Assembly: GCA_963575745.1 (NCBI GenBank)
Contig: CAUYUJ010000176.1
Location: forward strand, 62,001 to 117,196
DNA length: 55,196 nt
Direction: 5' to 3'
From: Prorocentrum cordatum
Lineage: Eukaryota
Under the pieces are notes generated by a model. It was not told where the DNA came from. It ran no database searches and saw only the letters and a list, made by a program, of their open reading frames with translations. Position 1 is the stretch's first letter. Each line of letters opens with the position of its first letter. This document shows, one piece after another, positions 27,465-33,741 of this stretch. Both the position numbers and the translations under genes were made by a program.

Positions 27465-27486
27465 TCCGTAGCCATTTTGGCTCAAG
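27465..27486 (+). other. Dinoflagellate spliced leader (exact 22-mer)
   Basis: TCCGTAGCCATTTTGGCTCAAG; followed by ATG rather than a GT intron, so it is not an SL RNA gene. Confidence 0.97.
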
Positions 27487-30400
27487 ATGCCTGGTTCCTT
27501 TGGGGCCAAAACGGATACCGCTAGTCCGCGGCCAGTTCTCAGAGTTTTTCGCCTTCTCTGCAGGAGTTGGGCGCCTGCCTTTCCAGTCTTTCCCGAGCTG
27601 CTCTCGCCATGGTCCCCCCGCCCTGGCGCACCGAGGATGGCTGGACCAGCGTCGGCGGAGGCAAGAAGGGGAAGAAGTTCCAGACGTACACGTACTGCTC
27701 GTGCGGGCATTGGACGTACGATCGTCTGCTGGCTCGCCGCGGCTTCTGCGTGGGTTGCGGCACGGCCATGCAACCTACTGGTGGTGGGAAGAGTGGTGCA
27801 GGAGGAGCCAACGGAGCTCCCAGCGGTGGCGGCGGCGGTGCGTCTGGTGTGGATCCCGCGGCAGTGGCAGCGGCCAGGAAGGCGGCCGCACTGCTGCCCC
27901 CCGCTGCTGCAGCCGAGTTGCTTGCTACCCTCAAGATCAAGCCAGATCCTCCCCCACCGATGCCCCTCGGCGAGGCCGAGATCAGCTCCGCCGAGGCCAA
28001 GAAGCGTGCTGCTACCCGTGCGGTCCAGCAGGCCATCGACGCCCGCCTCCGCCTCGAGGAGCAGATCGCTGCAGCCGACAAGAAGGTCGACGAAGCTATC
28101 AAGAAGGAGGAGGAGGCCCAGCAGGCCGTCGAGCTGGCTGCCCGCAACCTCGCTGCGAGGGTCCTCCCAACGCCCGAGGAGACGCTGCCTTCATCGGGCT
28201 CGGTGCTGCACATCGGCGCGCTGCTGGAGGATCCTGACTCGGTGCGTCTGGATTTCGGCGAATCGATCGATGTCACGGGCCCCGCTTTCTCGGATGAGGA
28301 CAGAGCGAAGTTCAGCAATTTCGCCGAGCAGCAGCGCATCGCTGCCACGGAGCTCCTTCGCAAGGCTTTCTCGGGCGTCGCCGAGCAGGCCAAGAAGCTC
28401 CAGTCCGAGTACGTATCTTACGTCAAGCAGATCCAGAAGAAGCGCAAGGCGGAGGACGGCCAGGGCGTTGCAGTCCAGCAGCCGTCGGCCCCTCCCGCAG
28501 CGGCGGCCAGCTCCCCTGCAGGCGCTGCGGCGGAGGCCAGCCAGGAGCCTCCTGGCCCAGCGGCGCCTGCCGCCTCGCCCACGCCCGCTGAGGCCGCCGA
28601 GCTGGAGGCAGAGCGGCGTCGGGAGGCCGTCCGCGCCGCCAGCGCGGCACGCGCAGCTGCCAAGCAGGAGGCGGCGGCGGCGGCCCCCCCGCGGGGGTAG
28701 CCTGGGCGCTGACGACGAGGGCCGCTCCCTGAGGCTGGTGTACGGGAACATCTCGTGCTGGGGGCCCCAGGCTGAGCGCTGGCTGGCGGAGACGCTAGCA
28801 GACGTGGTGGTCTTGGTTGAGACCAGGGTGAGGGGTGTTAAGTACACCCAGATGTGCGCTGCCGCGAGGCGGCTGGGCTGGAAGGCTGTTGGCGGAGAGG
28901 CTGACGCCACGGAAGCCTTTTCCACGTCGGCGGGGGTGGTGATCTTCGCCCGCGCCCGACTTGGGCTCGCCTCGCTGTGCCTCGAGGCGAACGGAGGCTG
29001 GACATCAAGTTCCTGTTCGCGCTGGTGCGTGGCCACCCTCAGGCTGCGCCGCGTCACGCTCACCATCGTTCCGATCTACATGGTCTCGGGCGAGGAGTTG
29101 GGCGGCCGCAACCTCAAGTTGCTTTCTCAAGTGGGTGCTCGGCTCGGCCAGTTGGCGGGCCCTCTCTTCATCGTTGGGGACTGGCAGTCTGTGTCCAGCG
29201 AGCTTGCGACGACTGGCTTCATGGCGGCGCTTGGCCTGGTCGAGGTGCAGTCGGGTTTGCAGGTCACGTGTACTGGCGGCAGGGGCGCAGGGCGTGCCAT
29301 CGACTACGCCCTGGTCTCGTCCTCCTTCGCGTCGGCTGTGCAGTTTGCAGGGGTCGACGTCTCGGCCCCGTGGGGGACCCACCTCGCGCTCTCCTACAAC
29401 ATCCTGGCCAACCCGAGGTCGCTCATGGGCTGGTGTGTGGTCATGCCGAAGGCGCTGGACATCTTTGTCGCCTCCAACGAGAGCTACGACCTGGACTGGG
29501 ACGCCGCCCTCTCTGAGGCCCGTGCCTTTCGCCAGCGCTTTTCTGCCCGTTTTACCTCTAACTTTGAGACGGCGAGCCTCGCCATTGCAGATCACGATGT
29601 GCCGCAGACTGCCCTTTTGCTCGGAAGTCAGCTCGGGGAGTGGGCCCTAGCTTTGGAGTTTGTGCATTGTGCCAAAAAAGGTATACCTCGCTCGCAGTGG
29701 CCTCTGTACGTAGGACGATGTCAGCAGCCTCGCCTCAAGTACGTTCCCATCGTGCCTCGTGCCAGCGACGGCCCTCCTCTCGCTGACCGCCATGCCCGTT
29801 TTTGGCAGGCCCTCGCTGTGCAGGCCTCCTTGCTGTTGCGTTTGGCTGATCCCGAGGCGGACCCATCCGAGGCATCTACTCCGCGCGCCGGCTGCGGTGA
29901 GCAGTTCTGGAGCACGATGCGTGGGCTTGAGGCCCTGCAGCTGCCCCCGCCTTTTGATCCGAACGACGCGGTGGAGGGAGCGATCCTTGAGCGTTGGATC
30001 TTTCGGCTCCGCCAGCTTCGCTCGCTGTCGCTTGACAGCCTTCAGCAGATCGCGGAGGAGGCTAAGGAGCAGGGAGTCCAGGCTGCCCAGCGCGCGGCTG
30101 CGGCGGCCCGTGCGCGCTGGCGTTCCTGGTTGTCCGACGCTTTGGCGGGTTCTGCCAGCAAAGCCCATAGGCTCCTCCGCGATCCTCCCGCCTTCTGCCG
30201 CGCCGAGCCTGTCTGGGACGGAGAGCCAGCCTCCACGCCCGCTGCCGTGCTAGAGGCGGAAGGCGCTGCGTGGCACGCAATCTGGTGCAAGCACTCGCGG
30301 CCCGAGGCTTTGGAGGCCCTCGCGAGGATCCGCCGTGCGGCTCTTTCGTCAGACTGCTTCGAGCCTGTCACTCCTGACCAGGTGAGGGGGGCGCTAAAGA

Positions 30401-32601: not shown

Positions 32602-33656
32602 ATCACGTGAATGCGATAGCACGCGGACGCCGCCACTGCTACAAGCTCGAGCACGCGGACCTCTGGCACGATCTTTTTTCGCTGCTTGACGTCCGCGTGG
32701 GCCGCTTCGCGCTCCTGCACGTGCCCTCGCATCTAGCTGAGGACCCCGCGAAGTTTGCGCGTCTAGGCCACACTGTGCTGCCCGAGGCTATCTTTCTCAA
32801 TGCAGTGGCCGACGGGCTCGCCGAGGAGCGGTCTGAGGAGGCCCAGCTTGATCCTGATGTAGCGCGTCGCGCTTTGGACTTGGTGGAGCAGGCCGAGGCC
32901 ATCCTGCTCCGCAATGCTACGCTCTGTGCTGCCGCCGCCTCCGCCCCCAAGAGCCCTGGCCGTGAGGTTATCAAACCGAAGGTTTCTAGGGCTCAGAGGA
33001 GGGAGGAGCTGCTTTCTGGCTTCGCGGCTCGTTCCCAGCATGCCTTTGTGCCGACCGCTTTCGGCTGGTGCTGCAAGAGCTGTGGCCGATCGGTCAGGCG
33101 CACTCAGAGCCGCGCCCTCCACCTCCTGCGTTCATCGTGCTCGGTCCTGCGGCCGTCGCCTTGCTCGCCTCCCTGCCGCGTGGAGCTGCAGCAGCGAGGC
33201 CAGCTGAGGGAGGGGGACGGGGCGGTCGAGGACGGGGGGGGGGACGGTGTGTTGCCTCTCGAGCCTGCGGCAGAGCCAGAGGCGGAGGACACTGCTCCCG
33301 CGCCTCGGGTCTGCGTCAGGCTGCCGCGCTCGTACGAGGGGCTGCCGCCCATCGACGAGCAACTCTTTCGGTCTCTGGGGATGCCTGATCCCCCATCTCG
33401 TCTGCCTCCTGGCACTGGCATCGCTGGACATGTGCCGCATGCCTCTCACTTTTTGTGGCGCAAGGGCGCCATCACGTTCTGCAGCACCTGCGGGCGCTAC
33501 GCGGACTCCAGGCCCTCGCTTCTTCTGGAGGAGTGCGAGGCGGCGAGGTACGGACCCCTCGCGCTGACTAAGGCGCAGCTGACTGCCCTGATGCGGCTGC
33601 GCAAGGGCCTCCCTCCCAGGCCTGGGGTCCGCGAGTGGCCCTCGGCGGGTGTTTAG
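32586..33656 (+). CDS. Frameshifted continuation of ORF2: C-half of RNase H and C-terminal Cys/His zinc modules
   Basis: SDHVNHV, ADLW, HVPSH and NAVADGLA complete RNase H; H..WCCKSCG and HASH..FCSTCG..C follow; joins the upstream frame if one base is restored at ~32587-32589. Confidence 0.88.
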   Translation, partial: VSDHVNHVNAIARGRRHCYKLEHADLWHDLFSLLDVRVGRFALLHVPSHLAEDPAKFARLGHTVLPEAIFLNAVADGLAEERSEEAQLDPDVARRALDLVEQAEAILLRNATLCAAAASAPKSPGREVIKPKVSRAQRREELLSGFAARSQHAFVPTAFGWCCKSCGRSVRRTQSRALHLLRSSCSVLRPSPCSPPCRVELQQRGQLREGDGAVEDGGGDGVLPLEPAAEPEAEDTAPAPRVCVRLPRSYEGLPPIDEQLFRSLGMPDPPSRLPPGTGIAGHVPHASHFLWRKGAITFCSTCGRYADSRPSLLLEECEAARYGPLALTKAQLTALMRLRKGLPPRPGVREWPSAGV

Positions 33657-33741
33657 CCCGCAGGTTTTGTTTGCCAGCCTGTCGCCCGGCCTTTTTGCTC
33701 TCGCGAATAGGGTGTGCGCCTGGCTGCCGCGCATTGCAAAA

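Follow-up and report, generated by a model that had tools for sequence, protein, structure and literature searches.

A 55,196-nt stretch of the genome of the dinoflagellate Prorocentrum cordatum (assembly GCA_963575745.1, contig CAUYUJ010000176.1, forward-strand positions 62,001 to 117,196; hereafter the window) encodes a long interspersed nuclear element (LINE) of 6.3 kb that opens with an exact dinoflagellate spliced leader (DinoSL, or SL) and is embedded in a (TCC)n microsatellite. The anatomy of this copy shows that its template was an mRNA already bearing the trans-spliced leader, which was reverse-transcribed to the first base of that leader, and that the copy was placed inside the repeat. 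We consider it likely, with a probability of roughly 0.7, that the element is a promoter-less, (TCC)n-targeting LINE copied from trans-spliced mRNA, and that the same machinery copies other SL-bearing mRNAs.

A spliced leader at the first base of the LINE

The leader (TCCGTAGCCATTTTGGCTCAAG) lies on the forward strand and matches DinoSL at all 22 positions without a mismatch. Allowing up to three mismatches, the 21-nt SL core occurs at three sites in the window, compared to a mean of 0.00 in dinucleotide-preserving shuffles (n = 100). The upstream array, read as (CCT)n, runs into the leader such that its final unit is the TCC belonging to the SL itself. The first base of the LINE is therefore the first base of the SL, with no element-specific sequence ahead of it. 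At its other end the element closes with ...GCATTGCAAAA and is directly followed by a second array, read as (CTC)n, and the same CCCCCT variants are present in both flanking arrays. The tail comprises only four A's (five in one contig of sequencing run X2, see below) and no poly(A). DinoSL gets onto mRNAs solely via trans-splicing, and since it is here DNA-encoded at the first base of an element that encodes a reverse transcriptase (RT), the template was a trans-spliced RNA.

An earlier reading of this stretch, made from the sequence alone (the sequence-only reading), had described an exact 22-nt leader directly behind (TCC)n and a 3′ end of four A's followed again by (TCC)n, and both are present. 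Its claim that the LINE has no 5′ sequence of its own ahead of the SL holds for the window copy and for five LINE 5′ ends from metagenome contigs, all of which begin with the SL, and the DNA-encoded SL at the first base of an RT-encoding element supports its proposal that a trans-spliced template was reverse-transcribed to its very end.

Self-comparison of the window at the DNA and protein levels revealed neither a second LINE copy nor a long terminal repeat (LTR). The 3′ untranslated region (UTR) and the 148-nt leader of the LINE fold no better than shuffled sequences (z-scores of -0.6 and +0.6, respectively). An apparent inverted SL in the leader (27500-27518, 5 mismatches) was considered as the partner of an SL-leader hairpin and rejected, as the predicted folds do not include it.

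Other SL-headed copies and the (TCC)n content of the window

Two further SL-headed retrocopies, elements B and C, are encoded on the reverse strand (Table 1). Neither is a LINE, and both have (TCC)n on either side. All three SLs in the window are directly preceded on their own strand by (TCC)n, and since such arrays (at least 3 pure units, merged, both orientations taken together) cover only 6.3% of the window, this association is not due to chance. Approximately 28 arrays are found in each orientation, most of them without an adjoining SL element, and the 30 nt ahead of the other arrays in the window share no common 3′ end motif. Poly(A) is lacking in all three SL-headed copies of the window, at whose 3′ joins GCAAAA/CTCC, CATTTAG/TCC and CCCCATG/CTCC are read.

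Element C encodes a 278-aa open reading frame (ORF; 16181 to 15348, reverse strand) with 11 database relatives at 56-91% identity, all of which are uncharacterised P. cordatum proteins on different contigs (at least 11 clusters) with no Pfam domain. The family may consist of non-autonomous SL-headed retroelements or of genes that retroposition has dispersed. In element B no coding sequence could be recognised, and relatives of the element C protein gave no match to it. Pfam searches of the non-LINE retrocopies embedded in (TCC)n (element B and the metagenome loci L126, L132 and L135) also returned nothing.

LINE 5′ ends and relic leaders in metagenome contigs

Metagenome contigs were scanned for CTCCTCC followed by the SL core. 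The scan yielded 16 loci (L127 and L131 being the same sequence), 9 with a (TCC)n array of at least 4 units touching the leader, 6 without an array and 1 too short, a rate that is biased since the pattern itself forces two TCC units. Five loci are LINE 5′ ends (L123, L128, L130, L133 and L134) and all five begin with the SL. A (TCC)n array lies upstream in four of them, whereas L130 has about three TCC units and no array. L134 and L130 show endonuclease and ORF2 homology to the LINE's relatives (E 1e-36 to 1e-11), and L123 is 88% identical to L134; L128, which shares the leader, and L133, which shares ORF1 with L128 (E 6e-24), are assigned to LINEs by leader or ORF1 only. One non-LINE locus, L135, is an SL-headed copy with (TCC)n on both sides.

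When aligned, the window copy, L134, L123 and L128 share an identical (TCC)n-SL junction and a conserved leader block. The hairpin to which this block contributes is strong in L134, L123 and L128 (z-scores of -2.3, -4.6 and -6.1) and degraded in the window (27492-27535, z-score -0.84). It lies 10-45 nt behind the leader (L134:65-92). Three LINE lineages retain it, with both arms altered, and its loop contains the first AUG of L128.

Two of the LINE 5′ ends carry older leaders. In L133, a new SL is followed by 55 nt of flank and then by an old full SL matching at 17 of 22 positions, and in L130 the SL is followed directly by a 16-nt relic matching at 13 of 16. As read from these contigs, the relic SLs require that some SL-headed LINE copies were transcribed from upstream, trans-spliced again and copied again. 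The acceptor used in both cases was not the terminal AG of the leader. Classical 15-nt relics, as expected from the SL's internal AG, are present in two loci that are not LINEs (L120 and L147), and the window copy, L134/L123 and L128 have no relic SL. The suggestion of the sequence-only reading that the leader's terminal AG renews the 5′ end in every cycle is therefore possible but qualified: the relic-free copies fit a terminal-AG acceptor and first-generation copies of a master with its own acceptor equally, and L133 and L130 used a different acceptor.

SL-abutting microsatellites in other sources

The SL core alone was also scanned, without any upstream pattern, in prokaryote assemblies (one genome per species), where stray dinoflagellate contigs occur. 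This unbiased scan gave 19 distinct contexts, of which 5 resemble SL RNA genes (GTAC after the leader), 2 have too little upstream sequence and 12 are assessable. In 4 of these 12 the SL abuts a microsatellite, namely a (TG)n-like array (L136:1-59), (CAT)n (L139:1-52), (GA)n (L149:57-137) and (GACA)n (L151:1-55), and in none of the 12 does it abut (TCC)n. The four contigs, binned as bacterial metagenome-assembled genomes, are probably stray dinoflagellate contigs; they show no LINE similarity and no second array in the 1.5-2.5 kb downstream. SL-headed copies beside microsatellites thus occur beyond P. cordatum, with a repeat type that varies by source, and because the repeats differ between sources, target choice is favoured over slippage on the leader's UCC as their origin.

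Identity and coding parts of the LINE

Judged by its motifs and their order, the element is a divergent multi-copy LINE of the apurinic endonuclease (APE) type with ORF1, endonuclease, RT, zinc finger, RNase H and a Cys-rich tail (Table 1). Pfam matches to the ORF2 region are all below cut-off and occur in the canonical order: Exo_endo_phos (E 0.002, covering profile positions 23-214 of 225), RVT_1 (E 0.13) and zf-RVT (E 5.6e-4). Exo_endo_phos passes the cut-off in 3 of 7 aligned relatives (best E 2.4e-7). These seven database relatives of ORF2 comprise one sequence with ~99.7% identity (2 residue differences), labelled Prorocentrum cordatum by NCBI, and six with 25-29% identity (E 2e-76 to 1e-20). 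Several carry PF00078, PF00075 or PF03372, with PF00078 present in relative P0002. Their alignment is invariant at GGxRPI, the motif A aspartate, xDD, CxxC..H..C and the RNase H glutamate.

A phmmer search of the window ORF2 against solved structures (PDB) gave no match. A profile of the seven relatives scored best against human LINE-1 ORF2p (E 2.5e-6 to 7.5e-6), followed by retroviral RNase H (E 0.0019), R2 (E 0.007) and exonuclease III (E 0.021). The LINE is too divergent for assignment to a named clade by these searches. L1 scores better than R2, these being the only LINEs among the solved structures, and RNase H fits several clades. Pfam searches with ORF1 of four lineages returned noise only, and viral contigs searched with one LINE protein contained no relative. 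ORF1 ends in a run of seven C's, then CGCGGGGG, then TAG (28676-28700).

Table 1 Features of the LINE and of the other SL-headed copies, in window coordinates
Feature	Position	Strand	Remarks
Upstream (TCC)n array	27075..27467	+	presumed target microsatellite; polypyrimidine tract directly ahead of SL
Spliced leader, exact 22 nt	27465..27486	+	opening bases of the LINE; 0.00 expected in shuffles
Long open frame, 1704 aa	27487..32601	+	from SL-abutting ATG; ORF2 frame (+1 relative to ORF1), stop-free across ORF1; ends early by base missing after 32587
Leader block conserved with L123, L128 and L134	27507..27535	+	right arm of a strong hairpin in those lineages; weak hairpin in window
ORF1, 363 aa	27609..28700	+	N-terminal CxC...CxxC zinc-ribbon-like motif, then Glu/Lys/Ala-rich, helical-looking region; no Pfam match
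Apurinic-type endonuclease (EEP), part of ORF2	28729..29391	+	Exo_endo_phos E 0.002; motifs E, D, D, H at 28807-29391
Reverse transcriptase core	30565..31188	+	GGLRPIAL at 30574, motif A at 30775, IDD at 31051
Zinc-binding CxxC..H..C motif behind RT (zf-RVT-like)	31996..32142	+	zf-RVT E 5.6e-4; C, C, H, C invariant in alignment of relatives
RNase H part	32368..32822	+	divided by frame change after 32587 in window copy
Cys-rich C-terminal tail of ORF2	32823..33656	+	CxxC at 33069 and 33477; conserved in relative P0002; TAG stop 33654-33656
3′ UTR, 85 nt, ends in four A's	33657..33741	+	no poly(A) tail
Downstream (TCC)n array	33742..33902	+	read as (CTC)n; directly behind the 3′ UTR
Element C, SL-headed retrocopy, 1.2 kb	15043..16254	-	SL 21/22 at 16254-16233; (TCC)n at 16255-16340 and 14960-15042
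Element B, SL-headed retrocopy, 0.9 kb	52595..53471	-	SL 22/22 at 53471-53450; (TCC)n at 53472-53532 and 52176-52594

Contigs of four public sequencing runs (X1-X4, from three studies), which are of uncertain kind, were aligned to the LINE. The ORF2 frame of the window copy changes after 32587, within RNase H, and every covering contig in all four runs has one extra A after 32587, which joins both frames. The window copy therefore carries either a 1-base deletion or an assembly error at this position. Hence, of the organisation given by the sequence-only reading, ORF1, ORF2 and a short 3′ UTR are present, but ORF2 is not intact in this copy and the two ORFs are not simply consecutive, since the ORF2 frame is open through ORF1 (see below). 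In X1, 621 contigs align at 90-100% identity (266 at ≥99%, 215 at 95-99% and 140 at 90-95%), which indicates a multi-copy family with young members. Many contigs of the four runs match the TCC-plus-SL stretch and extend upstream, and among the best-supported loose ends listed for these runs none has a different sequence ahead of the leader at ~27487. A few bases downstream of the frame break, CACGTGAAT occurs twice as a direct, in-frame 9-nt duplication (32596-32613). Elsewhere in the element, two 1-base changes that compensate each other, at 28715 and 28719, are present in a single X1 contig.

The ORF2 frame across ORF1

The frame that opens at the SL-abutting ATG of the window copy is free of stops throughout ORF1, and the same is true of the +1 frame of ORF1 in all five lineages compared (363, 382, 317, 473 and 408 codons), amounting to 0 stops over 1535 codons in four lineages plus 408 in L133. 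The +2 frame of the same ORF1s contains 3, 3, 2, 8 and 7 stops, and the +1 frame of ORF2 contains 1.2-3.6 stops per 100 codons. Across the 396 codons between the two ORFs of L134, the ORF2 frame has 0 stops versus 15 and 7 in the other two frames. Codon-order shuffles in four lineages gave P values of 0.007, 0.006, 0.08 and 0.0004; however, this is a poor null since the +2 frame is also depleted of stops against it, and the comparison of frame with frame is sounder.

The ORF2-frame ATG touches the leader in the window and L134/L123, and lies 20 nt behind it in L130 and 26 nt in L128, such that the first AUG is in the ORF2 frame in four of the five lineages. The region around the beginning of the endonuclease part contains no ATG, in keeping with an ORF2 that is translated from far upstream. 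Between L134 and L123, 29 of 51 differences in the overlap fall on the third codon position of ORF1, which is the second position of the long frame, indicating that ORF1 is selected as a protein, whereas the extension is kept open but is unconserved in sequence. In the leader of the same pair, the 15 differing sites are spread 5/4/6 across codon positions.

We put the odds at about even that translation of ORF2 begins at the first AUG, with leaky scanning giving rise to the ORF1 protein. Besides the weakness of the shuffle null, two findings count against this expression mode: the first AUG of L133 is that of ORF1, with the ORF2-frame ATG second and 58 nt later, and the peptide of the long frame over leader and ORF1 is not conserved, only its openness being maintained.

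Proposed mechanism and alternatives

We propose that cDNA synthesis is primed at a nick made by the endonuclease in the GGA strand of (TCC)n.(GGA)n. Given the lack of poly(A), priming would probably depend on short UCC/CUCC pairing or on a read-through (UCC)n tail, and since the leader itself starts with UCC, the 5′ join could be seamless. The same machinery would copy other leader-bearing mRNAs into (TCC)n in trans, with B, C and L135 as candidate examples. A new copy would need no promoter, as upstream read-through transcription could supply its RNA, which would then be trans-spliced anew; (TCC)n would act as the polypyrimidine tract, and the AG of the DNA-encoded leader, or one nearby, as acceptor. 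The 22-nt leader would then be the whole 5′ UTR: ribosomes initiating at the first AUG would read the stop-free frame across ORF1 into ORF2, and those scanning past it would make the ORF1 protein.

Several observations weigh against this model. Trans-splicing, read-through and acceptor choice are all deduced from DNA sequence, a target-site duplication is unreadable within (TCC)n, and no empty site is readable either. Only one LINE 3′ end was seen, so that two-sided (TCC)n rests on one LINE copy and three non-LINE retrocopies (B, C and L135), and elements B and C are not attributable to the window LINE rather than to another LINE. Poly(A) is absent from every retrocopy, which is unusual for ordinary mRNA copies. 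The lack of an array in L130 and the bias of the metagenome scan towards upstream TCC units count in the same direction.

One alternative concerns the renewal step only. SL-headed copies could be dead on arrival, produced from LINE masters equipped with an upstream region of their own and with a natural acceptor immediately before the first AUG, in which case the DNA-encoded SL would play no part in the next cycle. The broken RNase H frame of the window copy would be expected under this scenario, as would the alignment position of the SL-to-leader junction, which is shared by the window, L134/L123 and L128 in the way that a fixed natural acceptor would give; moreover, re-splicing of a DNA-encoded SL usually leaves a relic, as in L120 and L147, and these copies have none. 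However, the relic SLs of L133 and L130 indicate that transcription, re-splicing and renewed copying did take place for at least some LINE copies headed by an SL, and the loose ends of the four runs, albeit a weak argument, offer no alternative sequence ahead of the leader. The sequence-only reading had stated that it would be contradicted by copies in which a longer, element-specific 5′ UTR takes the place of the SL; no such copy or other master-type 5′ end was found, in searches that were biased by requiring an SL. We regard dead-on-arrival copies as unlikely, albeit a real contender.

The (TCC)n could instead be made by the element, either as a 3′ repeat tail added at priming or at the 5′ end through repeated copying of the leader's UCC, with two-sided arrays arising from insertion into the tails of older copies. 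Many LINEs have short repeat tails in place of poly(A), the junction is in register with the TCC of the SL in every case, and the window is unusually rich in (TCC)n. Slippage on UCC cannot, on the other hand, yield the (TG)n-like, (CAT)n, (GA)n and (GACA)n arrays abutting SL-headed copies in other dinoflagellate contigs, SL elements are missing beside most of the window's (TCC)n arrays, and the CCCCCT variants common to both LINE-flanking arrays resemble those of one older compound array. An element-made repeat therefore appears quite improbable. We give almost no credence to a LINE that targets SL genes, in which case the SL would belong to the interrupted target gene rather than to the transcript. 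Non-LTR elements with site specificity for SL exons do exist (PMC4640811, accessible part), yet the window LINE is flanked by (TCC)n on both sides, without an SL gene promoter upstream or an SL intron downstream; SL-gene-like loci show GTAC after the SL, where ATG, CCT or CGG is found here; and the endonuclease is APE-type, not restriction-like as in the SL-gene-targeting clades. A chance match or an assembly or cDNA artefact is just as negligible. Nothing favours it beyond the general risk of error in a repeat-rich assembly, and it is at odds with the absence of matches in shuffles, with the same (TCC)n-SL-leader structure in independent metagenome contigs, and with the many contigs of four runs and three studies that match TCC-plus-SL and run on upstream.

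A broader version of the preferred model, which is possible but doubtful on balance, is that dinoflagellate LINEs base their whole life cycle on SL trans-splicing and are the engine of rampant mRNA retroposition. They would have no promoter, a pyrimidine microsatellite and the AG of a DNA-encoded leader would form a ready-made trans-splice site, the 22-nt leader would be the entire 5′ UTR, leaky scanning would set the ORF1:ORF2 ratio, and different lineages would use different microsatellites. If this were true, lineage-specific microsatellites would explain SL-headed retrogenes at (TCC)n, (CAT)n, (GA)n, (GACA)n and (TG)n-like arrays.

Relation to known systems

According to the accessible parts of previous studies, about a fifth to a quarter of dinoflagellate genes carry relic SLs, and the enzyme behind mRNA retroposition in these organisms is unknown, with Ty1/copia LTR elements being favoured (PMC6050394, PMC5585692, PMC12014239). 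DinoSL-tagged retrogenes with relic leaders after re-splicing have been described (PMC7245778, PMC5585692, PMC6050394, each in its accessible part). The copies reported here resemble them in the DNA-encoded SL at the 5′ end of an RNA-derived copy and in the relics left after re-splicing (L120, L147, L130 and L133). However, unlike these retrogenes, the RNA copied here encodes an endonuclease and an RT, and the insertion site is defined, with (TCC)n on both sides.

R1-clade elements insert in (TC)n and (TTC)n. Microsatellites and SL exons are among the targets recorded for site-specific non-LTR elements, and Togen and some HERO families are (TG)n-specific (PMC4640811, accessible part). The window LINE is similar to these microsatellite-specific elements in having the same short repeat on both sides, no long poly(A) and likely priming by pairing with the target repeat. 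It differs in its target, since (TCC)n is not named as one in the accessible part of the literature, in combining an APE endonuclease with RNase H in a dinoflagellate-specific element, and in a 5′ end set by trans-splicing; it also seems to carry unrelated mRNAs along. The trypanosomatid elements SLACS, CZAR and CRE and the nematode element NeSL-1 likewise link a LINE with the spliced leader in a trans-splicing organism, but they have a restriction-like endonuclease and the SL gene as target, whereas the window LINE is APE-type, has the SL in its transcript and is flanked by (TCC)n. Human LINE-1, the best match among solved structures, also has ORF1 and an ORF2 with endonuclease and RT, mobilises cellular mRNAs in trans (as we propose here) and is present in many copies. 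LINE-1 differs in its internal promoter, its poly(A) tail, its TTTT/AA target and the separation of its ORFs; the window LINE lacks a promoter region and poly(A), is embedded in a repeat, includes an RNase H, and has an ORF2 frame that overlaps all of ORF1.

We view the window LINE as a probable microsatellite-targeting LINE, one that would tie LINE machinery to the origin of dinoflagellate retrogenes. Since an element encoding RT and endonuclease shares the 5′ SL tag and the precise insertion context with unrelated SL-headed copies, it provides a concrete hypothesis for retrogene formation and points to repeat-targeting LINEs as the machinery by which mRNAs are "recycled" into dinoflagellate genomes. 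For a genome in which trans-splicing makes 5′ ends, the element also suggests a way for a retrotransposon to dispense with a promoter, and expressing two LINE proteins by means of an ORF2 frame that stays open across ORF1 would be unusual. A literature search, with subscription journals and bioRxiv supplements outside its scope, retrieved nothing on LINEs headed by an SL, on DinoSL retrocopies inserted into microsatellites, on (TCC)n as a target, or on dinoflagellate elements whose ORF2 frame overlaps ORF1; further sources consulted, in their accessible parts, on DinoSL, relics, the RT of retroposition or non-LTR targets were PMC3229502, PMC3942190, PMC11453091, PMC10666404, PMC8045281, PMC7789003 and PMC5029490.

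Additional observations

The window is crowded with long trinucleotide arrays, including a 5-kb (GTA)n as well as (CAT)n, (ATG)n, (ACT)n and (GAC)n (e.g. 9-5030, 46645-47148, 51246-52039 and 54833-55156). Pfam searches of 71 long ORFs of the window outside the LINE identified 0 families.

The exact DinoSL core was also found in 134 distinct contexts in 119 IMG/VR loci (L001-L119; e.g. L012:3001-3021, L024:3001-3121), mostly in AT-rich giant-virus bins. Judged by eye, these DNA-encoded cores lie right behind a conserved AT-rich motif, and the preceding base is A instead of a (TCC)n array. An ATG within 120 nt opens an ORF of at least 150 aa in 96 cases, and the ORFs tested behind these SLs include NADAR, DUF4116 repeats, RING and CCCH fingers, and ABC_tran. 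This looks like dinoflagellate viruses hard-coding the host SL onto their own transcripts, and a literature search on giant viruses, spliced leaders and dinoflagellates gave no obvious report of a virus-encoded SL. One of these IMG/VR contigs (L067:1-2907, reverse strand) begins precisely with the SL core, and its ORF of 759 aa matches the viral RdRP_1 family (E 4.5e-7). This contig may represent either an SL-tagged transcript or an endogenous version of a dinoflagellate RNA virus.

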